The notes beneath the pieces are model-generated. The model did no database searches and was not told the DNA's origin. It saw only the letters and a list, made by a program, of their open reading frames with translations. 64,000 bases of DNA from Selenomonas sp. (GTDB taxonomy: Bacteria; Bacillota; Negativicutes; Selenomonadales; Selenomonadaceae), in the NCBI RefSeq assembly GCF_022773585.1, contig NZ_JALEZZ010000021.1, one strand, 5' to 3'. Below, piece by piece: positions 1,917 through 15,508 of the stretch. Numbering within the stretch: position 1 is the stretch's first letter; each line of letters begins with the position of its first letter. The position numbers and the translations under genes are program-made.

Positions 1917-2472
1917 GGAAATCTCTCCTTTTTCTCTTCTTTGTCGTATCTCTTTCGATGGATTCAGTGTAGCACAGGTGCCTTGTTATGTGTTAATACG
2001 CAATATCTTGGAATAGTTATAGATGAAAGCTATATCTATCTCCACGTCAAAACAAGAGGCGGATGCACACCAATTTCTTCGGGGGATGCCTTACACGATA
2101 TGTTCCTTGCTTTTTGCAGTTCATTCGTTACAATGAAAGCAGCGACACTTTGAAATCACAACCAGCAAAGGCAGGGGATTGGTTATGCGGTCATGGAAAG
2201 ATGCGGATGCAGCGGCCTCGTTCCGTTCGGATGCGGATGCGTCGCTTTTCTCCCGTGTGGCAGCAGCGCTCTGGGGATGGAACCTCGTGCCTGCTGGAAC
2301 AGAGTCCAGCCTGCCCTTTCCTGTATTCTTCGAGCACCGGCAGATGTTCTTCCCCATCGCCTCTTTTGCGGATGCGGGAGCGCAGTCTTTGGCAGTGGCG
2401 CTCTTTGCATGGTTCGACCGCTCATCGAGTTATCCAACAACGCGCAGCCTTGGCTGCTATGCACCGCTTCAG

Positions 2473-3309
2473 ATGACGACGAAGACGTTCCTGGAGGAAT
2501 TCGCGGAGACACCGGAGCTTCCGCAACCCTATGATATTGCGGAACGTTTCATCGAGGATGCCATCCGGCAGCGCCCGCTCGATGACGTGCAGACGGAGCT
2601 CGAAACGTTTCTTGCCACGACAGACCTCGTCATCCACCGCCGCGACATCCTGCGGTGGAAAGACATTTTCCATCTCGTCATCCAGCGAGCGGAGGCCGCA
2701 CAGGACTATGTGACGAAACGCCGCTGGGATGTCACGGATGCGGAGTTGCAGGAGTTCTTGGAAGTGTACCGGCAGCAGCAGGAAAATCATGCAGAGCCCA
2801 AAGAGGATGCTTTCGCCATGCAAGCTTCCATCGCAGTGGCGCCGCCTCGGCACGGAAATCTCCGCAGGCTGCGCAAAGTCCTCGTCGATGCCGATGCCTG
2901 CCCCGTCATTCCGTCCGTCGAGAACATCTGTGAACGCTACGGCGTGCCAGTCGTCCTCTGCTGTGATGACAGCCGCGCCATGGAATCGAGCTACAGCGAC
3001 ATTGTCCGCGTTCCGCGCGGCCAGCATGCCGCCGATGCAGCCATCATCGCACTCTGCCACAAAGGGGACATCGTCGTGACGGAGGATGCCGGGCTGGCGC
3101 TCCTCGCGCTGGCGAAAGAAGCCTATCCGATTGCTTCTGACGGCTGGCGCTATACGCACCGCATGCTGCGGCAAAAAGATGGTGCGCAGCTGAAACGACG
3201 CAGCGCCCAGCGTCATCTGCACAAGCGCACGTCTTCTGATGACGAAGATTTCGAACGCGGCTTCCTCGTGCTGCTGCACAAAAAATTCTTCGGCGAAGAA
3301 GAATGGTGA
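2473..3309 (+). CDS. YaiI/YqxD (DUF188, UPF0178) domain protein with a ~115-aa unassigned N-terminal extension
   Basis: The C-terminal half carries LVDADACPVIP...VVLCCD...HAADAAIIALCHKGDIVVTEDAGLA, the DUF188 signature. I chose ATG 2473 (MTTKTFLEEF...); an internal ATG at 2818 would give a stand-alone DUF188. The ORF-track start at 2179 looks non-coding. Confidence 0.65.
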   Translation: MTTKTFLEEFAETPELPQPYDIAERFIEDAIRQRPLDDVQTELETFLATTDLVIHRRDILRWKDIFHLVIQRAEAAQDYVTKRRWDVTDAELQEFLEVYRQQQENHAEPKEDAFAMQASIAVAPPRHGNLRRLRKVLVDADACPVIPSVENICERYGVPVVLCCDDSRAMESSYSDIVRVPRGQHAADAAIIALCHKGDIVVTEDAGLALLALAKEAYPIASDGWRYTHRMLRQKDGAQLKRRSAQRHLHKRTSSDDEDFERGFLVLLHKKFFGEEEW

Positions 3310-3325
3310 AGGGAGAAGATGCATC

Positions 3326-3826
3326 ATGCAGATGGAACGAAAGCAAGGAAGCGAGCTCGCGATGTTTCTCGCCCTTGCGTTCCTGCTTCAGAGCTTGCGC
3401 CTTTTGATACCGATGATGCCAGGCCCCGTCAACATGTTCCTGATTGGCAGCCTGCTCAACATGGTCATGGCGCTCGCCATCTGGCGGACGCGCACGCGCT
3501 GGGCAGCCATCATCGGCGTGCTGTTACCGATCGGTGCATTTTTTCAGGGGCAGCTTCCCGTCGCTCCGATGATTCCTGTCGTAGCAACTGGAAACGCGGT
3601 TTTCACGCTTGCCGCCTTTGTACTCGGCCCTCGCCGCCGCGCTTATTTTGCGCCGTTGCTCAAAGCCGCCGTGCTTTTCATCGGCACGCAGCTGATTCTT
3701 CGGATGCTCGACCTGCCAGCACCGATGGCAAACGTGCTGACCTTCATGATGAGCTGGCCGCAAATCGTCACAGGATGCATTGGAATCTTTTTGAGCAGAA
3801 TTTTGCTGAAGCGGCTTCCACAATGA
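3326..3826 (+). CDS. Small polytopic membrane protein (about 5 TM helices), family not assigned
   Basis: ATG at 3326 (MQMERKQGSELAMFLALAFLL...). The hydrophobic segments are spaced like an ECF S-component or small transporter, with no diagnostic motif. Confidence 0.45.
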   Translation: MQMERKQGSELAMFLALAFLLQSLRLLIPMMPGPVNMFLIGSLLNMVMALAIWRTRTRWAAIIGVLLPIGAFFQGQLPVAPMIPVVATGNAVFTLAAFVLGPRRRAYFAPLLKAAVLFIGTQLILRMLDLPAPMANVLTFMMSWPQIVTGCIGIFLSRILLKRLPQ

Positions 3827-3915
3827 AAAAAACGAACCGGCGTACTTCGATTACCTTTTGACGGATGATGCTCGAAAACTCCCGTCTGTGTGTTTCAAAA
3901 TTTTTCCATCCATCC

Positions 3916-4254
3916 TTATTCGACGCCGGGGAACGACTCGACGTACTGGATCTTGATGTCCGGGAAGCTCTCGACAAACTGCACAGTGAAATCTTCCCCG
4001 TAGTCGACAAACTGCCACTCGCCGATGTCATCTGGGAACGAGCTCACGACTTTGACGCGCAGGTCGGGAAAGGAATTCACGACCTGTACTTTGACGTCCG
4101 CAAACGATTCGACGATGCGGACTCTGCCTGCCAGGCGGATGCCCTTGTAGTAGCCGTCTTCATTGATTTTCGAGGCAGCGCCTGCCGTAGCGGAGAAAGC
4201 GACGAGCAAAACGAAGAGCAAAACGAATGCCAGAGATTTTTGAACCATATGCAT
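3916..4254 (-). CDS. Small secreted protein built from short V-x-SF(P/A)D-hydrophobic-K/R-V repeats
   Basis: Signal peptide MHMVQKSLAFVLLFVLLVAFSATAGAAS, then VESFADVKVQVV / NSFPDLRVKVV / SSFPDDIGEW / VESFPDIKIQYV / ESFPGVE. Confidence 0.6.
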   Translation of the reverse strand: MHMVQKSLAFVLLFVLLVAFSATAGAASKINEDGYYKGIRLAGRVRIVESFADVKVQVVNSFPDLRVKVVSSFPDDIGEWQFVDYGEDFTVQFVESFPDIKIQYVESFPGVE

Positions 4255-4390
4255 AGATCATTCTCCTCCACGAAGTGTTATTCATCTTGTTTTCTGATTC
4301 GTCATGCATCGCAGTTTTCCTTCTCCGGTGTTTTCCATCGTCGATGAGTTCCCATCCCAGCCTTTTCCGCATGATACTTGGAGGTGCCTT

Positions 4391-4996
4391 ATGGATTTTT
4401 CGAACATCGCAGCTGCGCTTCGGAAGCGCGAATACGCCGTGTCCTGCTTTTCGACAGCCAAGGAAGCTGCCATCTATCTCGACGCTGCCATTGACGGGCA
4501 GACCGTAGGCTTCGGCGACTCGATGACACTACTCTCGCTCGGCATCTATGATCTGCTCGCACGCCACAACGATGTGCGCGACCCAGAGCATCCGCGCGAA
4601 GGCGAAGACTTCTACTCAACCGCGCGAAAAGCCCTGCTGACCGATGTCTTCCTGACGTCCGTCAACGGCCTTGCCGAAACAGGCGAGATGGTGAACATCG
4701 ACGGCACGGGCAATCGCGTCGCAGGCTCGCTCTACGGCCACAAGAAAGTCTATTTCGTCATCGGCTCGAACAAGATTGCTCCGACGCTCGAAGAAGCCAC
4801 CTGGCGCGCCCGCAACGTCGCCGCTCCGCAAAATGCCGCGCGCCACGGCTATCAGACGCCCTGCGCACGAAAGCAGGATCATTGCTACGACTGCTACCAC
4901 CCGAACCGCATCTGCAACGCGCAGGTCATCTACTGGCAGAAGATGAACCACATGGACATGGAAGTCGTTTTGATTGACGAACCGCTTGGTCTGTAA
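4391..4996 (+). CDS. LUD-domain (lactate-utilization LutC/YkgG-like, DUF162) protein
   Basis: MDFSNIAAALRKREYAVSCF...GFGDSMTL...NIDGTGNRVAGSLYGHKKVYFVIGSNKI...NVAAPQNAAR...PCARKQDHCYDCYHPNRICN. The family-typical layout includes the C-terminal Cys cluster. Confidence 0.8.
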   Translation: MDFSNIAAALRKREYAVSCFSTAKEAAIYLDAAIDGQTVGFGDSMTLLSLGIYDLLARHNDVRDPEHPREGEDFYSTARKALLTDVFLTSVNGLAETGEMVNIDGTGNRVAGSLYGHKKVYFVIGSNKIAPTLEEATWRARNVAAPQNAARHGYQTPCARKQDHCYDCYHPNRICNAQVIYWQKMNHMDMEVVLIDEPLGL

Positions 4997-5035
4997 GCTT
5001 CTATCTTCTTGCAATTTGCATGAAATTCAAAAAAT

Positions 5036-5087
5036 ATGCCGCTGAAGCAACACGTTTGAAACGTGCAATGGCTTCAGCGGCATTTTC
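5036..5087. terminator. Bidirectional intrinsic terminator between convergent genes
   Basis: A-run, a 13-bp stem ATGCCGCTGAAGC / GCTTCAGCGGCAT enclosing a nested CACGTT-TGA-AACGTG hairpin, then TTTT. Confidence 0.7.
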
Positions 5088-5096
5088 GTATGGGAT

Positions 5097-5717
5097 TCAA
5101 TTCTCATCTGGCGTCCACGGCACAAAATCTGTGGCTGGATGCTTGCAGATGGGGCAGACGAAATCAGCTGGCAGCGTATCACCCTCATAGATGTACCCGC
5201 ATATCGTGCAGATAAAGCCCTTCTTGACGCCCTTCGGCGCAGCCGGCTTCCCCTTGATATGCTTTTGATAAAAGCTGTAGGTTGCAGATTCGTCCTGCGA
5301 CAACACCTCGCCGTCCGTCACATCGGCCAGGAACAGCGTATGCGTGCCGAGGTCTGTCATGGACACAACTTTCGCTGAGAGATACGCATTGGCTTCCTCC
5401 GTCAGATAAATCAAGCCATTCTCGCTGCGCTTGAACATGATGCCTCTGGCTTTGTCCACATCGCGACCGCTCTGGTACCCCCAATGTTCAAACGTCGGAA
5501 ACGTTGCCTGTTCCGACAAGATGGAAACATTGAACTGGCCCGTCTTCACAATCATGTCATGCGTGTAATTCTGCTTGTTGATGGCAACCGTGATACGGTT
5601 GGGGGAGCTCGTCACCTGCGTCACCGTGTTCGTAATGCAGCCATTGTCCTTCTCGCCTTCTTTGGCGGTCACGACATACAGGCCATAGGAAATCTTGTAC
5701 ATTGCTTTTGCGTCCAT
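5097..5717 (-). CDS. Flavin reductase domain fused to a C-terminal rubredoxin (high-molecular-weight rubredoxin, Hrb-like)
   Basis: ATG at 5717 (MDAKAMYKISYGLYVVTA...NGCITNT, a flavin-reductase fold signature). The C-terminus CTICGYIYEG...FVCPICKHP is a rubredoxin CxxC...CxxC. Confidence 0.85.
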   Translation of the reverse strand: MDAKAMYKISYGLYVVTAKEGEKDNGCITNTVTQVTSSPNRITVAINKQNYTHDMIVKTGQFNVSILSEQATFPTFEHWGYQSGRDVDKARGIMFKRSENGLIYLTEEANAYLSAKVVSMTDLGTHTLFLADVTDGEVLSQDESATYSFYQKHIKGKPAAPKGVKKGFICTICGYIYEGDTLPADFVCPICKHPATDFVPWTPDEN

Positions 5718-5802
5718 AAATATCCCCTCGATTCGGTACTCGCATTTTCTATTGATACTATTTAATTCGCGACAACTGGTACGATTTCCTGCCTTGTACT
5801 TT

Positions 5803-5919
5803 TTAATTTCCTTCTGCCATGCCGTCTGCGCTCCCCGGCTGCAACGGGCCGTAGAAATAGCTTGCCGTTGCACCGCCGTCGACGAGAAATGTCGAGCCCG
5901 TGATGAACTGCGCACGATC
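5803..5919 (-). pseudogene. Remnant: last ~38 codons of a short-chain dehydrogenase/reductase
   Basis: Only the tail of the long ORF 5803..7026 is protein-like (...AQFITGSTFLVDGGATASYFYGPLQPG*, the SDR C-terminal motif). Upstream sequence in that frame is low-complexity R/S/A. Confidence 0.55.
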
Positions 5920-6507
5920 CTGCTTGACCGGCACAACCGCACGTTCTCCTTGACGTCGGCCGGCGAGGTCTTCTACCGCCGCAGCCTCGTCCTGCGCGCC
6001 GAGATTGAGCAACTCGTCCGCGAGACGCAGCGCGCGGGACAAAAAGAGCATCCGGAGCTGCGGCTCGGATGCTACCAGGGGTATCAGGGACAGGCGTTCG
6101 CGCTCGCCATCGAGCTTTCCGCACAAAGCCCGCTTGCCAATCTCGATGCGCTCACGGCGAAAGACCTCCGAAACCTCCCCTGCATCCTCGTCGCACGTGG
6201 GACGCAGCAGGCAGAGGAACAAGCTTACTGCACCGACGTGCTCGGCCTCCACAGCGAGTTCCGCTTCGCGCGGACGTTTGAGGAAGCACGCCTCATGGTG
6301 CTGACCGCACAGGGGTATCTGCCCGTTGACACGTTCGAGGACAGCTTCGCGCCTGCGACCGCCATCGAGCGCATCCCGCTCGTATCTGACGGCCAGCCCG
6401 TCACAAAGAACTACTGCGCCTTCTGGAAAACATCGAACCGCAATCCCCACGCCGAAGAATTCGCGCAACTGCTCCAAGTGGCGTTTTCCCCGACACAAGT
6501 GGATTGA
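5902..6507 (+). pseudogene. Remnant of a LysR-family regulator lacking the HTH and part of the effector domain
   Basis: ...DELRTILLDRHNRTFSLTSAGEVFYRRSLVLRAEIEQL...ELRLGCYQG... matches the LysR linker and the start of the effector domain. There is no N-terminal HTH and no plausible start. The ORF-track start at 5695 is antisense to the Hrb gene. Confidence 0.55.
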
Positions 6508-6601
6508 CCTTTTTCTCTCGTGTATCTCGCACGGAACCAAACCAGCAGGGGGCAGCATCCATTCGGGTGCGGCCTCGGTGGATTCGATGGTTCTGTAGTT
6601 T

Positions 6602-7420
6602 TCAGGCGATCTCCACGAGCTTCGAGGTTTCGTCGCCATAGAGCGGGTTCGCCGTGCGGACGGTGCCGAGGCCGCTCTCTTTGAGGAACGTTGCCGCTGC
6701 TTCGACTTTGGCCGGAAGATCGACATGCGCGAGGTAGTCCGCACCGTTCGGGCCGTAACCGTTCGCGTCATCGCGCAGGCGCTTGACTTCGCCGAGCAGC
6801 AGCGAGAGATAGTGCTCCATGCTCCACATGCCCCAGTACTCCATGAGGAAGCCAAGCTGCCAGCCTTTCGAGATGACGGCGGGGCGATACGGCGCGTAGT
6901 TGACGACCTGGAGGTCGGGCGCGACCTTGCGGAACGTCGCATCCATGCGCAGCTGCATCGTCGCATCCTGCATGATAAGCACCGATTTTGGCGTAATGCC
7001 GTTCTGCTGCAAAACATCCAGTGCATACGTCACGTTGTTGCCGCAGTTCGTCGAGCGGTTCTCGATGAGCGCCCCCTCGATGCCGTAGCAGAGCTTCAAG
7101 TAATCCGCCATGATGTCAGCCTCAGCGCGGCCATCGACGTCGAGCTCCGGCACGCGATCTTTGTAGGCCGCGCGCACGACTTCCGTCGTGTGGCCGATGC
7201 CGCCGACGAGCAGCAGGCGCTTCGCGATGCCGCGCTGCCATGCCCGCGCGACGATATCGCAGCCATGCGGGATCATCCCGCCGAACGCAATGAGCACGTC
7301 CGCCTGCGGTTCTCTGATCTGCGCCTGCATTGCCTCCGTGCTCAATTCGTCGATGTCGCGGCGCGCGAGGAAGTAACCGATGATGTTTGCCGCCGAAGCA
7401 GCCCGCTGCCAATCTTTCAT
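6602..7420 (-). CDS. YdcF/DUF218 (ElyC/SanA-like) family protein
   Basis: 272-aa ORF containing ...ADVLIAFGGMIPHG...RLLLVGGIGHTT...IENRSTNCGNN... Confidence 0.65.
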   Translation of the reverse strand: MKDWQRAASAANIIGYFLARRDIDELSTEAMQAQIREPQADVLIAFGGMIPHGCDIVARAWQRGIAKRLLLVGGIGHTTEVVRAAYKDRVPELDVDGRAEADIMADYLKLCYGIEGALIENRSTNCGNNVTYALDVLQQNGITPKSVLIMQDATMQLRMDATFRKVAPDLQVVNYAPYRPAVISKGWQLGFLMEYWGMWSMEHYLSLLLGEVKRLRDDANGYGPNGADYLAHVDLPAKVEAAATFLKESGLGTVRTANPLYGDETSKLVEIA

Positions 7421-7594
7421 GAAAAATCGCTCCTTCTATTTTTGTATGTTCGTTTCGTTTCTTTGCTCTTGTTGGCTTTATCATAGCGTGCGAGCGACTA
7501 TTTTACAAATAGAAAATTTCGATTTTTGATCGATTCTACGAAAATCTTCACGTTTTTGTGTTCTTTACATCCTGCAATATGTAAAAAGCTCATT

Positions 7595-7647
7595 GAAAAC
7601 ACAAAGATGCCCCGCATGCAGGAAACATCATCTGCATGCGGGGCATC
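7595..7647 (-). terminator. Intrinsic terminator after the DeoR-family gene
   Basis: 16-bp perfect stem GATGCCCCGCATGCAG / CTGCATGCGGGGCATC, followed on the minus strand by TTTGTGTTTTC. Confidence 0.8.
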
Positions 7648-7658
7648 GTGCCAAAAGC

Positions 7659-8420
7659 TCAGCCGACGCTGTCGACGTCGGTGCGCTGGCGCATGGTTTC
7701 GAGGAGTTCTGGCGCGGCTTTGCTGTCGGTCACGACGCGCGTGAGTTCTTCGAGGCGGGCGATGCGCTCGAAATAGCTCTGGCCGAGCTTCGTGCTGTCC
7801 GTCGCGACGACCGTCTGCCGAGCCTGGCGAATGAGGATACGCTTCGTCTCGGCATCCGTATAGTCCGGACTCGTGAGGCCATAGTCCGTATCGAGACCAT
7901 TCGCGCCGAGGAAGAGCCAGTCGACGTGGAAGCGCTCCATGAAATCAGCCGTCATCTGCCCGCTCGCACCGCGCAGTGCGGGATAGTAGACGCCCGGCAC
8001 GATGATCAGGCGGTTGCCCTTTTCCTGGCTCAGGATTTCCGCCGCGTCGAGCGAGGCGGTCAGCACGGTGAGGTTCGTGCGCTTCGCGAGGCATTCAGCG
8101 ATGCAGGCGCCCGTCGAGCCGTTGTCGATGAAGACGCTTTCGCCCTCCTGCACGAGTTCGGCGCAATGCGCGGCGATCTTCCGCTTTTCCTCCGGCTGGC
8201 GGCGCTGGCGCAGTTCGAGGCTGTGCAGGACGGCATTGCCCTGATTGAGCGCCGCGCCGCCGCGGATCGTCGTGATGAGCCCTTCCGCTTCGAGGCGCGA
8301 GAAATCGCGGCGGAGCGTCATGGCCGAGACGCCGTAGATTTCGCAGAGCGCGTTCGTGTAAACCGTCCGGCTGTCCTGGAGCCGGCGCAAGATGTCCTCG
8401 CGACGCTGGCGTGCATTCAT
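7659..8420 (-). CDS. DeoR/GlpR-family transcriptional repressor
   Basis: ATG at 8420 (MNARQRREDILRRLQDSRTVYTNALCEIYGVSAMTLRRDFSRLEAEGLI...), followed by a DeoR C-terminal sensor domain (FIDNGSTG...). Confidence 0.85.
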   Translation of the reverse strand: MNARQRREDILRRLQDSRTVYTNALCEIYGVSAMTLRRDFSRLEAEGLITTIRGGAALNQGNAVLHSLELRQRRQPEEKRKIAAHCAELVQEGESVFIDNGSTGACIAECLAKRTNLTVLTASLDAAEILSQEKGNRLIIVPGVYYPALRGASGQMTADFMERFHVDWLFLGANGLDTDYGLTSPDYTDAETKRILIRQARQTVVATDSTKLGQSYFERIARLEELTRVVTDSKAAPELLETMRQRTDVDSVG

Positions 8421-8565
8421 TTGGAAACTCCTTTCTTCGAGACCTGGACGACCTCGATGCCAAGACGGCGGGCCTTGCGGACGAACTCCGGGTCGGCTTC
8501 TCCGTCCGTCACGATCTTGTCCATCGCCGTCCTCGATGCTAATGCATACTTTGTGGGACATAATC

Positions 8566-9033
8566 TCATGCATCCTTGTGGATGTCCACCCATCCCGCCG
8601 CGCGGGCAAAGCGGAACAGTTCTTCTGGCGTCATGCGGACGGCACTGTGATCATCGCCTGCCGCTGGATAGACGGTTTCATAGGCATGAAGCGAAGTATC
8701 GAGATAAACCGGAACGCCATCTTTCACGGCAAACGGGCAGACGCCGCCGGGTGCGTGGCCGACCAGTGCTTCGACGTCATCAGCAGGAATCATCCGGCCT
8801 TTCTTTCCGAACGCGGCCTTGAATTTGTGATTGTCCATCCGCGCATCTCCGGCGAGCACGACGAGCAGCGGCTTTCCATCCACTAGGAAGGAAAGCGTCT
8901 TCGCAATATGCCCCGACGAAACACCGAGCGCTTCGGCTGCCAGTGCCACCGTCGCCGTCGATTCCTCGAATGTCAGAATGCGAGTGGATTCTCCAAGATT
9001 CTCAAAATAAGCTTTGACTTTTTTGATGGACAT
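8566..9033 (-). CDS. YbaK/EbsC/ProX-type aminoacyl-tRNA deacylase domain protein
   Basis: ATG at 9033 (MSIKKVKAYFENLGE...), with ...HIAKTLSFLVDGKPLLVVLAGDARMDNHKF...GGVCPFA... Confidence 0.75.
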   Translation of the reverse strand: MSIKKVKAYFENLGESTRILTFEESTATVALAAEALGVSSGHIAKTLSFLVDGKPLLVVLAGDARMDNHKFKAAFGKKGRMIPADDVEALVGHAPGGVCPFAVKDGVPVYLDTSLHAYETVYPAAGDDHSAVRMTPEELFRFARAAGWVDIHKDA

Positions 9034-9055
9034 GCGCTTTCTCTCCCTCCGTTCG

Positions 9056-10252
9056 TCAATGTTCTGCCTCTGGCGCTGCAAAAGCCCCGTGCCAGGTGAT
9101 GTCACGATAGCGCTCGCGGTCAGTCGCGCCTTCCGTGCTGATGCAGAGGATGGTCGAGTCCTTGCCAAGGCCGACGGCTTCCGCAAGCGCCTTGTTTTCC
9201 TCGCGTCCGAGGAGGGCGAGCGCCGCACCGACGCCGGAGGCTCCGCTCTCGCCAGAGATGATGCGCGGGTCGTCCCCAAGCGGCGCACCGAGCGTCCGCA
9301 TGGCATCGGCGGCCGTGAAGTCCTCGCAGGTCAGAGCGAAATCAGACGTATGCTGGAGGATGTCCCATGCGATGCTGCACGGCTCGCCACAGGCCAGCCC
9401 CGCCATGATGGTTTTCATGTCTCCTTCGGCGAAATGGCGCTTTCCGTCATTGGCAGCCGCCGAACGATAAAAGCAGTCCGCCGTCGTCGGCTCGACGATG
9501 AGAATGGTCGGCGGGTTCTCTGGCCAGGCGGCTTTCAGCACGGCTGCAACACCAGCCGCCATCGAGCCGACACCGGCCTGCAAAAAGACATGCGTCGGCG
9601 GTTCCGACATCGCCTCGACGATTTCCGCCGCCATCGTCCCGTAGCCCGTGATGATCCAGCCGGGGATTTCCTCGTAGCCGGGCCACGCCGTATCCTGCAC
9701 GAGCACCCAGCCGTTCTTTTCGGCCTGCTCGCTCGCCATGCGCACGACATCGTCATACTTGAGGTCCGTGATCGACGCCTCGGCCCCTGCGGCGCGGATG
9801 TTTTCGAGGCGCTCGGGACGGCTGCCCTTCGGCATGTAAACGACGGAATGCTGGCCGAGCGCATGCGCCGTCCATGCCACGCCGCGTCCGTGGTTCCCGT
9901 CCGTCGCCGTGATGAACGTGATGTCGCCGCAGGCGGCGCGAAATGCTTTTGACGTCAATGTCGCATACGTCGTCTCGTCCGGCCGCAAGCCAGCCCGCCG
10001 CGCGAGGTAGCGCCCGATGGCGTAGCTGCTGCCGAGCACCTTGAATGCATTGAGGCCGAAGCGATACGACTCGTCCTTTACGAAAAACCGATGGACGCCA
10101 TACGCCTCGGCGAGATGGCGCAGGTCACAGAGCGGCGTCGGCGCATACTGCGGAAACGACGCATGGTAGCGCCGCGCATCCGCAACAGCCTCGGCGCTCA
10201 TGAGCCCGCGGCTGTCCCCATTCTTTTCTCCTGGCATCTTTGCAAGCTGCAT
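9056..10252 (-). CDS. dpaL: Diaminopropionate ammonia-lyase (PLP-dependent, YgeX/DpaL type)
   Basis: ATG at 10252 with GGAGGA upstream. FVKDESYRFGLNAFKVLGSSYA is the family PLP-lysine motif, inside a tryptophan-synthase-beta-like fold. Confidence 0.8.
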   Translation of the reverse strand: MQLAKMPGEKNGDSRGLMSAEAVADARRYHASFPQYAPTPLCDLRHLAEAYGVHRFFVKDESYRFGLNAFKVLGSSYAIGRYLARRAGLRPDETTYATLTSKAFRAACGDITFITATDGNHGRGVAWTAHALGQHSVVYMPKGSRPERLENIRAAGAEASITDLKYDDVVRMASEQAEKNGWVLVQDTAWPGYEEIPGWIITGYGTMAAEIVEAMSEPPTHVFLQAGVGSMAAGVAAVLKAAWPENPPTILIVEPTTADCFYRSAAANDGKRHFAEGDMKTIMAGLACGEPCSIAWDILQHTSDFALTCEDFTAADAMRTLGAPLGDDPRIISGESGASGVGAALALLGREENKALAEAVGLGKDSTILCISTEGATDRERYRDITWHGAFAAPEAEH

Positions 10253-10372
10253 CACGATTCCTCCATTCCAAATGTCTCTTGATACGATGATTCTACCATA
10301 TCGAACAAGCATGCGAAAAGAGGTTTCCAAGAAAAACGAGCTACTATAGATTTATGAAAGAAGGGAGTCATC

Positions 10373-10936
10373 ATGTGCAGCAGATACGGCATCGGAGAGC
10401 ATATCGGGACGTGGCTGGCGAAATATGGATGGCATCAGACGCTCTCCGCCAATGACATCCATCCGCAAGACCTTGCGCCCGTCCTCGTCGCGCGCGGCAG
10501 AATGCTCCGAGCACTCCCGATGCGCTGGGGCATGCAGAATCCGAAGTCGGGAGCGCTCGTCATCAATGCACGGAAAGAGACGGCCACACAGAAGCCGATG
10601 TTTTCCGAAAGTCTCCGAAGCCGCCGCTGCATCCTCCCGGCAACGAAGTTCTATGAATGGGATGCAGCGAAGCAACGAGTGACATTTTCTCCCGTTACAG
10701 GCGGACGCCTCTACCTCTGCGGCCTGTACCGCATGGAGGAAGACGTCCCGCATTTCGTCATCCTGACGAAACCAGCCGGCGAGATCATGCAGCCTGTCCA
10801 TGACCGCATGCCCGTCATGGTCGCAGAAGATGACATCGATCCATGGCTGACGGATGCAGCGCAGGCAATGGCCCTGCTCGAGAGCGAAGTCCCGCTCCAG
10901 CGATCTCCCATCGTTGAAGAGCTCTCCCTTTTTTAG
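10373..10936 (+). CDS. SOS-response-associated peptidase (SRAP/YedK, DUF159)
   Basis: Starts MCSRYG (catalytic Cys2), followed by ...INARKETA...RRCILPATKFYEW...HDRMPVM... Confidence 0.85.
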   Translation: MCSRYGIGEHIGTWLAKYGWHQTLSANDIHPQDLAPVLVARGRMLRALPMRWGMQNPKSGALVINARKETATQKPMFSESLRSRRCILPATKFYEWDAAKQRVTFSPVTGGRLYLCGLYRMEEDVPHFVILTKPAGEIMQPVHDRMPVMVAEDDIDPWLTDAAQAMALLESEVPLQRSPIVEELSLF

Positions 10937-11020
10937 CCTTTCCCTCGTTCCGTGGAAGCAACATATCCTGTGGCATCTGCCGATGTAATTTCCCTTCGAG
11001 ACCCCATAGAACGAGCAAAG

Positions 11021-11066
11021 CGCCGAGGAGCCGCATTCTGACGCGGCTCCCCGGCGCTTGTATTTG
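11021..11066 (+). terminator. Probable terminator after the SRAP gene
   Basis: Stem CGCCGAGGAGCCGC / GCGGCTCCCCGGCG followed by a weak T-tract (CTTGTATTTGT). Confidence 0.5.
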
Positions 11067-11120
11067 TGCGAACTTATGGAATCGATGGGCTGAACTGCAA
11101 GCTGTACTGGCATCAAGCCG

Positions 11121-11543
11121 CTATATCTTCCGTTCGAGATTCCTGAGCACTTCTTCTGTGACGTTGCCACGCAATCCGCGCTTGAACAGCCGGGCATGGT
11201 GCATAATGTCCCTGACGTTCTCTATATACTCCTGCTCCGTCTGCAACATCTCCGGCGGCATGATGTCGTCCTGCACGAGCTCTGGCAAGACAGCACATTC
11301 CTTTTCCAGTTCCCTCAAATTCTTTTGCTGGGTAAGCAGCAATCCGATGTTGCCTTTTTCCACCTTGCTCATGACCGTATCTATCTTGTCGTGCAGAGCG
11401 TTGATTTTTACCATGTGCTCTTTTAACAGCAGAAGCTGACGCCGTTTTTTCTGCAGGACAGCCATATTCCCTGCTTCATGCCCGCTATAATCATGGCAGT
11501 CGAATTCATGTTCCATTGTCTTGTGCATCCCTTTCTTTCCCAC
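11121..11543 (-). CDS. Hypothetical protein, predicted coiled-coil, no family assigned
   Basis: 140-aa ORF with heptad-like charged segments. The start is uncertain (M1, M6 or M10). Confidence 0.45.
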   Translation of the reverse strand: MGKKGMHKTMEHEFDCHDYSGHEAGNMAVLQKKRRQLLLLKEHMVKINALHDKIDTVMSKVEKGNIGLLLTQQKNLRELEKECAVLPELVQDDIMPPEMLQTEQEYIENVRDIMHHARLFKRGLRGNVTEEVLRNLERKI

Positions 11544-11658
11544 TTTTTGCGCGATGATTCCATGCTCCGAATTCTACAAATCCTCAAAAAATCCCTCTTG
11601 CTCCCGCAACAAGCCTCGATTCTTCCCTTTTCGTATCTTGCGTCTATTCATGACCAAA

Positions 11659-12081
11659 TCACATCTGATTTTTCCCGCAGAGCTCGACGGTCTTCTCGTC
11701 CATCTCTCCAGCGAAAAACTTGTCCAGCACGCGCTGAAAGACCGTGCTGGAAGGCTCTGCCAGCGCAAAGAGCGTCATGGACGAGTGCAGTTTCAAGTTG
11801 TCAGGAAAGCCCATGACATCCTCTGCATCGTTCGATGGCAGGGTGAGCAGCGCTTCGCTGATTTCGAGCAGACGCATTCGGAGAACGGGCTCTGCAAGGT
11901 ATTCCCGCGCCTCGTCCAAGTCGCGGATGCCGTAGTATTCCGACGTCGAACTCCTGCCGAGCCCTTTGAGCTGCGGAAAGATGTACCAGATCCAATGCGT
12001 TTGCTTGCGGCCTGCACGGATTTCCCGCAGAGCGACGCCATAGTCTCCTTCTTGTGCTTTCAAAAAACGATCGATGGACAT
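11659..12081 (-). CDS. DUF1810 family protein
   Basis: MSIDRFLKAQEGDYGVALREIRAGRKQTHWIWYIFPQLKGLGRSSTSEYYGI... closely matches the conserved DUF1810 N-terminus (HWMWYIFPQ). Confidence 0.8.
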   Translation of the reverse strand: MSIDRFLKAQEGDYGVALREIRAGRKQTHWIWYIFPQLKGLGRSSTSEYYGIRDLDEAREYLAEPVLRMRLLEISEALLTLPSNDAEDVMGFPDNLKLHSSMTLFALAEPSSTVFQRVLDKFFAGEMDEKTVELCGKNQM

Positions 12082-12266
12082 GTGCTTTCACTCCGTTCAT
12101 CCCTGTTTCCGGCGCTGCAAAGACGCCGTGCCGGGCGATGTCGCAGCATCCTTCCAAACGTCTCCTGCTACGATGATTCTATCATATCGAATGGGCGTGT
12201 GAAAAGAAGCAGACGCCGCGAGCATCCTCCAATTTTCAAAATCCCTGCCAGCGAAAGGAGAACACC

Positions 12267-12542
12267 ATGAAAAATATCCTCGCATTCACGTTGAAAGGCT
12301 GCCCGTATTGCCGCAGCGCACAGAAAGCCTATGCGGCGCTCCATCAGAAACCAGCCTATCGGGATGTTTCCATCGACTGGATCGACGAGACCGAGCATCC
12401 TGAGCTTGCCTCGAAATACGATCATTACTACTGCCCGTCCATCTTCGTCGATGGCAAGAAGATTTATGAAGCGCATCCTGGTGACGATGACGATACCATC
12501 TTCCGCATGGTCGAAAGATCCATGCAGGCAGCACTTTCGTAA
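12267..12542 (+). CDS. Glutaredoxin/thioredoxin-fold protein (CPYC)
   Basis: 91 aa. FTLKGCPYCRSAQ is the active site, and ...CPSIFVDGKKIYE is typical of the glutaredoxin fold. Confidence 0.75.
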   Translation: MKNILAFTLKGCPYCRSAQKAYAALHQKPAYRDVSIDWIDETEHPELASKYDHYYCPSIFVDGKKIYEAHPGDDDDTIFRMVERSMQAALS

Positions 12543-12547
12543 GGGAA

Positions 12548-13105
12548 TCACTTCCCCAGCTTGCGTTCCAAAAATGGCGCGACCAGATGCTCGGCGTCAT
12601 GATTGATTTCCGCCAGCGCCCAGCCGTGATACAGCGCCGTCTGGACGAATGCGTTTGCGAACTGCGTCTCGTAACTCGTCCCGATGACAAGCAAAATCTT
12701 CTCCTGCCGACGCTTGTCTGCGCCGTTCGTTGCCCGCTGCAAGAGGTCGAAGGCCTGTTCGTAGAAGGCCTGTTCGCCATACAGCACCATCGTGCCATCT
12801 TCGAGATTTCCGTGGCACTCGACAACGGTTTTCGAGCCAGCCTTCTGATGCAGGCCGTCCACGTTCATCGTCACTACAGGGATGTCATGCGCCGCGAGCG
12901 CGCGATGCGCTGCATTCGGCTCCTTGCCGCGCATGTTGTCCTTCATCTGCTGGACAACGCGATCGAACTCTTCCAGATGCTTTGCACGATAACGGACATC
13001 GAGCTTGTTCTTGATTCCCGGGATGTCTTGAAACGTCGGAATGCCGGACGCTTTGGAAATGCCTGCGCCGGTCAGCGCAAGAATGAAAGGCTTTGGAGAT
13101 TCCAT
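12548..13105 (-). CDS. Minimal Sir2-family (sirtuin-like) NAD-utilising protein lacking the zinc-ribbon module
   Basis: GAGISKASGIPTF, TMNVDGLHQKAG, VECHG and LLVIGTSYE...AEINHD match sirtuin motifs. Only ~8 residues separate the catalytic His from VLYGE, and there are no CxxC pairs. 185 aa. Confidence 0.75.
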   Translation of the reverse strand: MESPKPFILALTGAGISKASGIPTFQDIPGIKNKLDVRYRAKHLEEFDRVVQQMKDNMRGKEPNAAHRALAAHDIPVVTMNVDGLHQKAGSKTVVECHGNLEDGTMVLYGEQAFYEQAFDLLQRATNGADKRRQEKILLVIGTSYETQFANAFVQTALYHGWALAEINHDAEHLVAPFLERKLGK

Positions 13106-13117
13106 ATCGTTTTCCTC

Positions 13118-13597
13118 CTAACGTGCTTCTACCAGCAAACGGATCAGTCGCTCGAATTTTTCTGCAAACCGTTCATCGTTCTCTGCCGTCCGCTTGCGCG
13201 GGCCTTTGAGATGCGTCTTTTTCGAAGAGCGACGTGCCTTCTTGACGACATATCGTTCTTGGAGCAGGCGGTCGATGTTTTCAGCCGTATACTGCCAGCC
13301 GTTCTGATGGACGGCATGCGCGCCCTTTCCAAGCACCATCGCGGCGACGCCGTAGTCCTGTGTGACGACGACGTCGCCTTTTTGGCATGCATTCGCGACA
13401 GCGATGTCCACGGCATCCGCGCCTGCCCCGATGACATGAACCTCCCCCACCTCGGATTGCAGAACATGGTTCGTGTCGCAGTAAAGATGCAGCGACACGC
13501 CATACTGTTTTGCGATGCGCTCGATCTCCGGCACAACGGGACAAGCATCGGCATCGACAAGAATCTGGAACAATTGTAAACTCACCTCCGGCATCAT
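13118..13597 (-). CDS. YaiI/YqxD (DUF188, UPF0178) family protein
   Basis: ILVDADACPVVPEIERIAKQYGVSLHLYCD...DAVDIAVANACQKGDVVVTQDYGVAA. The start may be 13597 or 13594. Confidence 0.8.
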   Translation of the reverse strand: MMPEVSLQLFQILVDADACPVVPEIERIAKQYGVSLHLYCDTNHVLQSEVGEVHVIGAGADAVDIAVANACQKGDVVVTQDYGVAAMVLGKGAHAVHQNGWQYTAENIDRLLQERYVVKKARRSSKKTHLKGPRKRTAENDERFAEKFERLIRLLVEAR

Positions 13598-13618
13598 TTT
13601 CCTCTGTCCCCTTTCGCA

Positions 13619-14584
13619 TCACAGGTGATGCAACGCCTCAGCAAACGACGCACAGATCTTCTGGATTTCCTCCCGTTTGAGCAGTGCGTCCTGCCATTCT
13701 TTCGGAATCGCGCCGAGCCCATACGCCAGCCCTGCGAGGCCTCCGGCAATCGCGCCGACCGTATCGGTATCTTCTCCGAGATTGACGGCTTTGAGGACGC
13801 AGTCTGCATAGCTTTTCGTTGTCATCAGGCAGTAGAGCACGGCTTCGAGCGTATCGACGACGTAGCCGCTGCTGCGGATACCATCGAGCGGGAGCGCGCG
13901 AAACGCTGCGGTATCCCAGAGACGGTGATACGTCTCTACTTCCCCGCGGAAACGGCCGTTTTCGCGATAACGATCATGTGCCTCAGCCAGTCCGTCTTTG
14001 ATGGCATCCTCGAGCCCCATGCCATCGAGCAGGCGCACGGCGATGAGCACGTAGATGCCGCAGGCCATCTGGCTGCGCGGATGCGCATGCGTGAGGGACG
14101 AGACATCGTGGACTTCTTCGAGCGCCTCGTCCGGCAGCCGGCTTCCATATTTCGCATAAAGATACGGCACCATCGGCGCGATGCGCATGAGCGAACCGTT
14201 ACCGTTGTCGCCTTCTCCGCGCCCGCCACATTCTACTGGCGAAAATCCCTGCTTGAAATTGTAGATGGCAAGGCCGCAAGTGCGCCCCATGTCGAACACC
14301 TCGCCCGTCGGCGTGAAGGCCGCCTCGTCCATCCACTTCCGAAAATTCTCCATGACGTCCGCAAGATCAAGACATCCCAATCGTCCGATGCTCTCTGCGA
14401 GCGCGAGCGTCATGCTCGTATCATCCGACCATGCACCAGCTGGCACAGGATGCGACCCGAACCCGCGCATCTCGTGGACAGGATCTGCCAAAAGCTCCTC
14501 ACGACCACGAAACTCCACGGGCACGCCGAGCGCATCCCCGATGGCGTGTCCGAGAAACAAGGCTTCGATCTGTTTCTTTTCCAT
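13619..14584 (-). CDS. ADP-ribosylglycohydrolase (ARH/DraG) family protein
   Basis: ATG at 14584 with GGGAGGGG upstream. Motifs: GHAIGDALGVPVEF, WSDDTSMTLA, GEDTDTVGAIAGGLAGLAYG. Confidence 0.85.
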   Translation of the reverse strand: MEKKQIEALFLGHAIGDALGVPVEFRGREELLADPVHEMRGFGSHPVPAGAWSDDTSMTLALAESIGRLGCLDLADVMENFRKWMDEAAFTPTGEVFDMGRTCGLAIYNFKQGFSPVECGGRGEGDNGNGSLMRIAPMVPYLYAKYGSRLPDEALEEVHDVSSLTHAHPRSQMACGIYVLIAVRLLDGMGLEDAIKDGLAEAHDRYRENGRFRGEVETYHRLWDTAAFRALPLDGIRSSGYVVDTLEAVLYCLMTTKSYADCVLKAVNLGEDTDTVGAIAGGLAGLAYGLGAIPKEWQDALLKREEIQKICASFAEALHHL

Positions 14585-14693
14585 GAACGCCCCTCCCATG
14601 AAAATCACTTTTTTCTATTCCTGTTTTACCACAGATTCCATATTTTTTCTATTCTCCCACAAGCATTCATGAACCTCTAAAATCTCGTCTTCT

Positions 14694-15314
14694 TCATTTT
14701 TCAAGCGCCCCTTTCAAAACGTCACGCTTTGACGATGATTTCTGCTTGCACACGAGCTGCGTCAGCGTCCCCATCGGGCAATAGACGCACCACGACCGCG
14801 GACGGAACCAGAGCATCGTCGCGATTGCGATGATTTCCGACGTCAGCATGAAGCTGTAGAGCTGGAAGGCAAACGAGGCCACCCACGGCTCTGTGCCGCC
14901 TGCATACGCCCACTGCCACGGTACTTGCACGCTCCAGAGAATCGTAATGACCTCCGAGAGGCTTCCTGCGCCGTGCGCGATGAGCCAGGTCGTATAGATG
15001 ATATTCCCGAACATCGCGAAGAAAAACACCATGAACGCATAGCGGAACGGCTTTCCTTTCATCCACGCAGGCATCTCGTGACCGCGCGAAAATCCGAGCT
15101 GGCCGCCGAACATCCGCAGGAACTGCCCGCGGTCGCAGTAACGGTTGCAGAAGCCCTTCGTCCCGAAGCCGAACGCAAACACGAGCGGCAGCAAAAAGCT
15201 CACGAGGCCGAGCCAGGCAAAGAGAATGTTGAAAAAGCCCGCAGCAAAGAAGAACAGCGAGTAGAGCCAGAGATAGTGATACCAGTGACGCTCCGCCGGC
15301 CGGATCCGTTTCAT
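14694..15314 (-). CDS. Polytopic membrane 4Fe-4S-binding-like protein (COG0348-like)
   Basis: ATG at 15314. Several TM segments with Cys motifs GFCNRYCDRG and WCVYCPMG. The start overlaps the upstream ferredoxin stop by 4 nt. Confidence 0.5.
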   Translation of the reverse strand: MKRIRPAERHWYHYLWLYSLFFFAAGFFNILFAWLGLVSFLLPLVFAFGFGTKGFCNRYCDRGQFLRMFGGQLGFSRGHEMPAWMKGKPFRYAFMVFFFAMFGNIIYTTWLIAHGAGSLSEVITILWSVQVPWQWAYAGGTEPWVASFAFQLYSFMLTSEIIAIATMLWFRPRSWCVYCPMGTLTQLVCKQKSSSKRDVLKGALEK

Positions 15315-15508
15315 GGCCGCACCTCCATCGTGATCACGCCCGCCGGGCACGCGCGGCTGCACATGCCGCAGCCAACGCACCGCGCTGCATCGACCACAGC
15401 ATAGCTTCCACGAAAAACCGAAATCGCCTTGCGCGGGCAGACATCCATGCAGCTTCCGCAGGCTACGCACGACCCGCGATCTGGCACGGCAATCCGTTTG
15501 AATTCCAT
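15311..15508 (-). CDS. 2x[4Fe-4S] ferredoxin
   Basis: MEFKRIAVPDRGSCVACGSCMDVCP...ARCVGCGMCSRACP. AGGACGGAG lies 5 nt upstream of ATG 15508. Confidence 0.8.
   Translation of the reverse strand: MEFKRIAVPDRGSCVACGSCMDVCPRKAISVFRGSYAVVDAARCVGCGMCSRACPAGVITMEVRP

Follow-up and report, generated by a model that had tools for sequence, protein, structure and literature searches.

The window analysed here, a 64,000-nucleotide stretch of a Selenomonas sp. contig (NZ_JALEZZ010000021.1), contains between positions 12548 and 14608 three co-directional open reading frames (ORFs) on the minus strand, encoding an ADP-ribosylglycohydrolase (ARH), a DUF188 protein and a Sir2-like protein. An earlier note had proposed that these three constitute an undescribed NAD/ADP-ribose module. 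Its family assignments hold in Pfam and NCBIfam searches, and the gaps of 21 and 12 nt that it gave, on a common strand, were confirmed from the ORF coordinates. The genes and the region preceding them are as follows.

14585..14693, minus strand: AT-rich leader 5' of ARH, read from the sequence; also a strain-level recombination breakpoint
13619..14584, minus strand: ARH/DraG-superfamily ADP-ribosylglycohydrolase, 321 aa from ATG; first gene of the local operon
13118..13597, minus strand: YaiI/YqxD (DUF188) protein, an NYN/PIN-like predicted nuclease, 159 aa (151-158 aa as called elsewhere, from a later start)
12548..13105, minus strand: mini-Sir2, a compact, zinc-ribbon-less canonical sirtuin, 185 aa

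The ARH ORF extends to 14608 (329 aa) if a GTG start is used; the same-species contigs are all called at 321 aa. Reading of the junctions, at 13598-13618 between ARH and DUF188 (21 nt) and 13106-13117 between DUF188 and Sir2 (12 nt), showed that each gene has its own Shine-Dalgarno sequence: GGAGG 7 nt ahead of the Sir2 ATG, where it overlaps the DUF188 stop codon, GAGG ahead of the DUF188 ATG and GGGAGGGG ahead of the ARH ATG. The first gene is preceded by an AT-rich spacer of 110 nt. A riboswitch or leader RNA at this position was considered and dropped, since Rfam gave no match at E <= 0.1 to the leader. In a scan for promoters and terminators the real sequence was no more informative than shuffled controls, with the exception of a promoter-like -35/-10 site (TTCACA-16-TAGAAT, 12203-12176) located before the DUF1810 gene described below. 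Co-transcription of ARH, DUF188 and Sir2 in the window's species is plausible from the arrangement of the sequence.

The mini-Sir2 protein matches the Pfam SIR2 family (PF02146, E 6e-16) over residues 13-102 only, against profile positions 1-106 of 180, that is the N-terminal half. The motifs quoted in the earlier note, including those of the ARH metal site, are all present; in mini-Sir2 they comprise GAGIS, TMNVDGLH, ECHG, IGTS and GAGISKASGIPTFQ, with Gln standing at the Arg position of GIPxFR. The zinc lobe is, as had been claimed, absent, the eight residues between His98 and V107 of VLYGE being free of Cys, with no Cys4. All seven NCBIfam CobB/deacylase models score below cutoff, the best giving 99.5 bits against a requirement of 243 (NF001753), and the best PDB sequence match is 1yc5 (E 5e-15). 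An AlphaFold2 (AF2) model was obtained with a predicted local distance difference test score (pLDDT) of 95.9 and a predicted template modelling score (pTM) of 0.91. Its top PDB folds in Foldseek are E. coli CobB (6rxq/1s5p), Sir2Tm, Sir2Af and SIRT5, with E values of about 1e-12 to 2e-13 and query template modelling (TM) scores of 0.75-0.82. The Foldseek alignments exceed mini-Sir2 by some 45 columns, matching the missing ribbon, and the helical sub-domain is retained. The structural comparison suggested in the earlier note places the Sir2 protein nearest to CobB and Sir2Tm and, as described below, DUF188 nearest to Rae1/YacP at a TM of only 0.42.

The ratio of non-synonymous to synonymous substitution rates (dN/dS) is 0.05-0.10 between the window's Sir2 and its orthologues and 0.04-0.11 over all orthologue pairs. 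The possibility that the gene is a truncated pseudogene of CobB, named in the earlier note as what would overturn it, is ruled out by these ratios, by homologues aligning over the full query at identities as low as 37 % and by the pLDDT of 96. Judged by its sequence and predicted structure, mini-Sir2 is a genuine protein under constraint, with a sirtuin core of canonical type that lacks the zinc lobe, and most likely acts as a compact NAD-dependent deacylase.

The 120 best homologues measure 172-210 aa; the family comprises about 60-80 clusters with proteins of 170-210 aa. At E <= 1e-30 a profile search covering 1.84 billion representatives returned 82 clusters, of which about 60 have proteins shorter than 215 aa, and the hits grade into canonical sirtuins of 225-260 aa. 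An alignment of 43 members shows invariance at T12-G-A-G, S17, G21, T24-F25, P63, H67, T79-M-N81, D83, L85-H86, H98-G99, Y109, G142, S144 and T147. Throughout the family the Arg of GIPxFR is replaced by Gln or Glu and the Gln of TQNxD by Met. The linker from HG to V-L-Y-G could be classified in 108 close homologues, the other nine of 117 length-filtered sequences falling outside the pattern: it lacks Cys in 92 (median 7 aa), while 16 retain four Cys in a linker of 36 aa. In a neighbour-joining tree, which is not robust and for which the motif classifier left many sequences unclassified, ribbon-bearing members of about 200 aa branch among the ribbon-less members of the compact clade. This branching is consistent with a secondary loss of the Cys4 ribbon, once or repeatedly, within that clade. 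No description of the clade was found in the searchable literature; in databases its members already carry the name 'NAD-dependent deacetylase'.

The ARH protein matches PF03747 (ADP_ribosyl_GH) at E 1e-78 over profile positions 3-287 of 287. Among solved structures Listeria Lmo0067 (8za7, E 4e-70) comes nearest to it, with Tri1 (6dre) and DraG (2woc) next, and it falls below the NCBIfam equivalog cutoffs for the latter two (Tri1, 166 against 490; DraG, 147.5 against 337). The motifs GDALGVPVEF, SDDTS and GEDTDT align with the same motifs of 8za7, and these metal-site motifs are intact. Its sequence identifies it as an Lmo0067-like ADP-ribosyl hydrolase with a predicted intact binuclear-metal site, an ordinary member of a broad family. 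A literature search on Lmo0067 and DUF1810 yielded nothing informative.

The DUF188 protein matches its Pfam family at E 2e-38 and exceeds the curated cutoff of the YaiI/YqxD model (NF001095, 154.7 against 139). Conserved acidic residues are D15 and D17, within VDADACP, and D41, D64, D75 and D81. No sequence match was found in the PDB; for the AF2 model (pLDDT 90) the best PDB fold is Rae1/YacP, with a probability of 0.99 but a TM of only 0.42. Rae1/YacP is an NYN endoribonuclease. The protein is a predicted RNase of the generic NYN/PIN-like kind, and nothing links it to NAD. In a survey of the PIN superfamily DUF188 was classed as NYN-like, of unknown function, with its genes in Firmicutes classically placed in the dnaG-sigA operon (PMC5499597).

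Conservation of the gene order was assessed with each gene as anchor. For Sir2, one genome of each species was scanned with a pattern, which gave 308 stretches with relatives, the best 80 of which were examined; these span Veillonellaceae/Selenomonadaceae, Gastranaerophilales, Lutispora and other Clostridia, Erysipelotrichaceae, Psittacicella and Calditrichales. In tblastn searches with the window's ARH and DUF188, neither was directly upstream of Sir2 at any of the 79 other genome loci. Sir2 occurs without these partners in nearly all genomes, and no neighbour is conserved across the 80. The trio is restricted to contigs encoding an identical Sir2 protein, that is to the window's own species, and is absent around the orthologues with 95 % (L001), 87 % (L002) and 85 % (L003) amino acid identity. 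At L001 the sequence in common with the window is the Sir2 ORF alone (92 % nucleotide identity), preceded there by genes for an IS110 transposase and a GNAT-like protein and followed by tRNA_edit and Septknot genes. L003 has an ARH orthologue (74 %) at a distance of 3.6 kb from Sir2, in divergent orientation, with genes for SRAP (SOS-response-associated peptidase) and a Y-family polymerase between them. Metagenomic Sir2 relatives with 82-84 % (L089/90) and 56-60 % (L091-L094) identity have no ARH or DUF188 beside Sir2. The trio is thus not syntenic in related genomes, and the claim of a three-component module, which the earlier note had itself staked on such synteny, is not supported.

Comparison of the ARH loci requires two further genes of the window and the block that separates ARH from one of them.

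12267..12542, plus strand: glutaredoxin/thioredoxin-like (Grx-like) gene, 91 aa (Pfam Glutaredoxin, E 4e-5)
11659..12081, minus strand: DUF1810 (Rv1873-like) gene (Pfam E 1.5e-55; PDB match 2jek, E 2e-29)
12090..13625, no strand assigned: block of DUF188, Sir2 and the Grx-like gene, missing between ARH and DUF1810 of locus L095 (blastn)

The Grx-like gene is convergent with Sir2, with a 5-nt gap between the stop codons, and was found solely on same-species contigs. Among 39 metagenome loci anchored on ARH (37-91 % identity) none has DUF188 or Sir2, the trio being absent from ARH orthologues at 87-91 % and at 76 % identity. At L095 the ARH stop codon is followed by 18 nt containing a GGGAGA ribosome-binding site, then by DUF1810 (4986-5402; 83 % nucleotide identity) and Septknot. 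By blastn, positions 4002-4959 of L095 correspond to window 14583-13626 (86 %) and positions 4978-5436 to window 12089-11631 (83 %), an arrangement which marks the intervening block of the window (12090-13625) as an insertion or rearrangement; no repeats flank it. ARH is followed by DUF1810 also at L129 and L125/126, at a distance of 0.5-0.6 kb. The ARH orthologue at these loci is split, with internal parts missing (L125:3022-3618, L126:3255-3851, L129:4001-4572), and is likely, from its sequence, a deleted or frameshifted pseudogene that DUF1810 still follows. On this account ARH appears dispensable in the lineage. The pairing with DUF1810 may be the more meaningful association of ARH, whose distant relatives adjoin KamA-like radical-SAM, ATP-grasp and GNAT genes.

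Orthologues of DUF188 are common at 85-91 % identity, and those at 85-86 % have neither Sir2 nor ARH adjoining. At L134/135 the order is Septknot, DUF188, a 12-nt gap, Sir2 (89 %), an aminotransferase and PALP, with no ARH; DUF188 followed by Sir2 is thereby seen in two lineages belonging to one family, a distribution that fits simple inheritance. Neither Sir2 nor ARH is present at L136, where DUF188 is followed by a helix-turn-helix gene with Cas6 further on, or at L137-139, where a partial DUF1810 and DUF169 precede it. Two contigs of the window's species (L082/L083, 97.4 % nucleotide identity) are colinear with the window only from 14586 downward. This breakpoint falls 2 nt ahead of the ARH ATG, with thioredoxin, ferredoxin and membrane protein genes beyond it in one strain type and a Y-family polymerase and a 202-aa ORF in L082/L083. 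Septknot, DUF169, DUF1810, DUF188, Sir2, ARH, SRAP, PALP, tRNA_edit and Y-family polymerase genes are permuted in sister lineages, and the orders seen elsewhere include ARH followed by DUF1810, DUF188 followed by Sir2 without ARH, Sir2 alone and DUF188 alone. When window positions 2000-15500 were compared with L001, L003, L095, L129, L134 and L137, the alignable segments stopped a few bases from ORF boundaries. An integron-like cassette array as the origin of this gene mosaic was ruled out, the spacers being only 5-33 nt long and the block having neither repeats nor attC-like inverted repeats at its flanks.

We consider it fairly probable that the three genes form a lineage-specific operon, a chance juxtaposition that arose recently when genes were rearranged in an accessory region, prone to recombination, of a rumen Selenomonadaceae/Veillonellaceae genome, and that they are no conserved system. 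Several points weigh against this explanation. Tight spacing and junctions resembling those of translationally coupled genes are also compatible with a genuine coupling that has only just arisen; a second lineage likewise has DUF188 ahead of Sir2, again with a spacer of 12 nt; the inspected genomic loci of Sir2 are the best 80 of 308; and, since Sir2 and ARH are both NAD/ADP-ribose enzymes, their adjacency is less likely to be meaningless than that of a random pair. As regards the deacylase activity attributed to mini-Sir2, the zinc module is held to be necessary for canonical deacetylation (PMC12700824). The family-wide replacement of the GIPxFR Arg and the TQNxD Gln means in addition that the activity is not assured. 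In view of both points, mini-Sir2 may instead have an altered activity, for example ADP-ribosyl transfer or NAD hydrolysis.

The earlier note had raised the further idea of an NAD-consuming effector held in check by a reversing or antitoxin partner. As a toxin-antitoxin or anti-phage defence system, Sir2 would be the NAD-depleting effector and ARH, DUF188 or both its restraint. Zinc-less Sir2 domains are indeed typical of antiphage NADases (PMC12700824), and the region is variable, with AAA_14/DUF4143, ATPase_2/DUF234, WYL and Cas6 genes nearby in relatives. Against these observations, none of the three proteins was matched by PADLOC at E <= 0.1, the SIR2_2 signature (PF13289) was not found in mini-Sir2 at E <= 0.01, and structurally mini-Sir2 comes closest to housekeeping deacylases. 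Sensor or partner domains (SLOG, HerA, pAgo, TIR) are absent. Furthermore, the solitary state of Sir2 nearly everywhere cannot be reconciled with a toxin dependent on a cognate antidote, and its low dN/dS is unlike that of fast-evolving conflict genes. A known defence system is ruled out by the PADLOC and SIR2_2 results, the effector and antidote idea is contradicted by the solitary Sir2 genes, and we regard any reading of this kind as very improbable.

Clustering of neighbours identified a macrodomain gene as the sole recurrent functional neighbour of mini-Sir2. It occurs at 7 of 96 Sir2 loci, on the same strand as Sir2 and 20-700 nt away, in at least three divergence groups that include a zinc-less member (L013). 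The encoded protein scores as an O-acetyl-ADP-ribose (OAADPr) deacetylase of the YmdB/MacroD type (NF001664, 229 against a cutoff of 200). These neighbours fit a mini-Sir2 chemistry that yields O-acyl-ADP-ribose and are the one indirect hint of NAD-dependent lysine deacylation. They also offer a weak echo of the pairing of sirtuin and hydrolase emphasised in the earlier note, although the link to ARH itself is confined to one species.

Within the explanation of a recently assembled operon, all three genes would probably be transcribed from the region upstream of ARH. Mini-Sir2 would bind NAD+ in the usual pocket, using His98, Asn81 and Asp83, and the retained V-L-Y-G-E loop of 'FGE type', in which Y109-G110 are invariant, would accommodate an acyl-lysine or some comparable extended substrate, the products being nicotinamide and O-acyl-ADP-ribose. 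Sirtuin-derived OAADPr is hydrolysed by ARH-family enzymes (summarised in PMC9503650), on the strength of which the window's ARH may fill the housekeeping role of the macrodomain. It could hydrolyse the O-acyl-ADP-ribose made by mini-Sir2, or a stray ADP-ribosyl adduct, the same clearing role being expected of the OAADPr-deacetylase macrodomain in the seven relatives. By this analogy ARH may clear the mini-Sir2 product in the window's species. The link between ARH and Sir2 is circumstantial and would be one of opportunistic, convenient co-expression, with no obligate partnership, and DUF188 is most simply seen as a bystander, an RNase gene carried along with Sir2.

The macrodomain adjacency in the seven relatives could equally mean a writer and its eraser. 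Accordingly, a young two-enzyme couple may be envisaged, in which the zinc-less mini-Sir2 is a mono-ADP-ribosyltransferase and ARH removes the modification, in functional analogy to SirTM and its macrodomain, with DUF188 as target, adaptor or bystander. The operon-like spacing with individual ribosome-binding sites and the ADP-ribose chemistry common to Sir2 and ARH favour such a couple; loss of the GIPxFR Arg and of the zinc ribbon and the change of Gln to Met in TQNxD suggest altered chemistry. Mini-Sir2 nevertheless keeps HG, where the ADP-ribosylating SirTMs have QG (PMC4518038), and the macrodomain neighbours score as OAADPr deacetylases. The adjacency of ARH and Sir2 is confined to one species: ARH orthologues occur without Sir2, paired with DUF1810, and Sir2 orthologues occur without a hydrolase. 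Among the neighbours of ARH relatives no ADP-ribosyltransferase that might serve as a writer for the subfamily was seen. We judge the couple unlikely.

A different line of evidence concerns RNA. The 82-84 % identical Sir2 relative at L089 lies downstream of genes for a PrfH-like release factor (158.6 bits, just below its cutoff of 166.65), an RNA ligase of the RtcB family, a WYL regulator and an RNase_T exonuclease (L089:982-4528), which make up an RNA-repair or ribosome-rescue cassette. The 56-60 % identical relatives (L091-L094) are encoded on phage-like contigs of 26-260 kb, among them P0017 (L091:5001-5609), P0026 (L092:5001-5633) and P0022 (L093:5001-5576), whose contigs look like large or jumbo phages. 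Contigs of this kind also encode DNA pol III alpha, endolysin, HNH and Cpn10 proteins, a RecJ-like protein (phrog_2484, E 1e-88) and a phage RNA ligase (phrog_968, E 7e-58). Annotated phage genomes (50,697 records, tblastn at E <= 1e-5) contain no close mini-Sir2 homologue. The 54 matching records show at most 42 % identity, most of them to the N-terminal half of the query only, and just two are Escherichia phages (<= 42 % identity). At this sensitivity and threshold no signal came from the numerous records of rV5-like, T5-like or Serratia-BF-type phages, and a search of BFVD returned only viral sirtuins of canonical size.

Iyer et al. (2022) predict a phage sirtuin clade that acts in the manner of KptA and is associated with RNA ligase, 2H, cREC, Nudix, PIN endoRNase or kinase genes (PMC9503650). 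By analogy with those neighbourhoods, mini-Sir2 might act like KptA/Tpt1 in RNA-end processing or repair, passing ADP-ribose to an RNA 2'-phosphate, with DUF188 as the RNase and ARH handling the ADP-ribose by-product. Two of the 56-60 % relatives do lie 0.4-1 kb downstream of the phrog_968 RNA ligase, the 82 % relative follows the PrfH-like, RtcB, WYL and RNase_T genes, and the PIN-like DUF188 resembles Rae1/YacP. The theme is nonetheless found in just three lineages out of the 96 Sir2 loci (RNA ligase at two loci, RtcB in one lineage), a third phage-like lineage having RecJ and DNA pol III neighbours instead. The Iyer clade was defined in the rV5-like, T5-like and Serratia-BF-type phages that gave no match at E <= 1e-5, and 2H, cREC and Nudix genes are absent near the cluster in the window. 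A role in RNA repair is, in our estimation, quite improbable. We give a similarly low probability to a bolder version, according to which zinc-less sirtuins of about 185 aa are the smallest functional sirtuins and, with the zinc ribbon, the GIPxFR Arg and the TQN Gln gone, have ceased to deacylate proteins. They would now ADP-ribosylate a non-protein or RNA-end substrate, an activity for which large phages would have captured them, and in the window's rumen species DUF188, as an NYN RNase, and ARH would have been recruited into a nascent operon for RNA/ADP-ribose processing.

The trio does not stand as a candidate new NAD/ADP-ribose system, and it would be wrong to present it as a module for defence, for toxin-antitoxin action or for writing and erasing. 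The interest of the locus lies in its sirtuin: the compact clade, which occurs in gut and rumen bacteria and on contigs resembling large phages, provides a natural test of whether sirtuin deacylation truly requires the zinc module, and mini-Sir2 itself a minimal scaffold for sirtuin enzymology.

Elsewhere in the window lies a second gene containing DUF188.

2179..3309, plus strand: second DUF188-containing gene, 376 aa, with a C-terminal DUF188 and an N-terminal region without a family match

The earlier note had listed this paralog at 2473..3309. The presence of DUF188 stands; the ORF is longer than was given, and DUF188 occupies its C-terminal residues ~247-367 only. Pfam and NCBIfam matches cover residues ~233-367, and no model of either database matches the N-terminal ~245 aa. 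The C-terminal ~130 residues are 35-40 % identical to the operon copy, and in L003 and L001 orthologues of the gene are found at a distance of 1.5-3.5 kb from Sir2. The SRAP gene of the window is at 10373-10936 on the plus strand. SRAP and a Y-family (IMS/DinB-like) polymerase recur nearby in relatives (L002, L003, L082), lending the region a DNA-damage-tolerance flavour.

Among known systems, mini-Sir2 resembles CobB, Sir2Tm and Sir2Af (PF02146, class III/U) in its GAGxS, N-x-D, HG and GTS motifs and in its FGE-type loop (YGE here). It differs in its length, 185 aa against ~235-250 aa, and in the replacement of the whole Cys4 zinc ribbon by a loop of ~7 residues. With the antiphage SIR2_2 proteins (ThsA, DSR, SIR2-HerA, pAgo-SIR2, FAM118) it shares the absence of the zinc-binding module (PMC12700824), but it is a solitary, single-domain protein under strong purifying selection, and its nearest folds are canonical deacylases, not ThsA-like.

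The operon of SirTM and macrodomain (Rack et al. 2015, PMC4518038) offers a parallel in the placing of a sirtuin gene beside that of an ADP-ribose hydrolase and in the concept of writer and eraser. SirTMs have QG for HG, retain a zinc domain and invariably come with a macrodomain, in most cases with GcvH-L and LplA2 as well (PMC4518038), whereas mini-Sir2 has HG and no zinc domain, the hydrolase has the ARH fold and the linkage is limited to one species. No macrodomain, GcvH or LplA gene lies within the window cluster. A SirTM identity is ruled out by the retained HG and by the lack of a macro/GcvH-L operon. The neighbourhoods of sirtuin and MacroD/YmdB-type OAADPr deacetylase are represented by seven members of the mini-Sir2 family itself, and the window's ARH could be a non-homologous stand-in for the deacetylase. 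The differences here are an ARH fold in place of the macro fold, a DUF188 gene between ARH and Sir2 and an arrangement confined to one species.

With DraG and Tri1 among its relatives (E 1e-33 to 4e-37), the window's ARH invites comparison with DraT-DraG, Tre1-Tri1 and DarT-DarG. It differs from these pairs in having no writer of the ADP-ribosyltransferase (ART) fold near it, and the conserved adjacency of modifier and reverser is not reproduced by ARH and Sir2. The operon DUF188 is a full member of the NYN-like YaiI/YqxD family, located in an accessory cluster in contrast to the dnaG-sigA operon of Firmicutes (PMC5499597). ARH and DUF188 are thus ordinary members of their families, and the compact, zinc-less sirtuin clade is a structural variant within the known sirtuin family.

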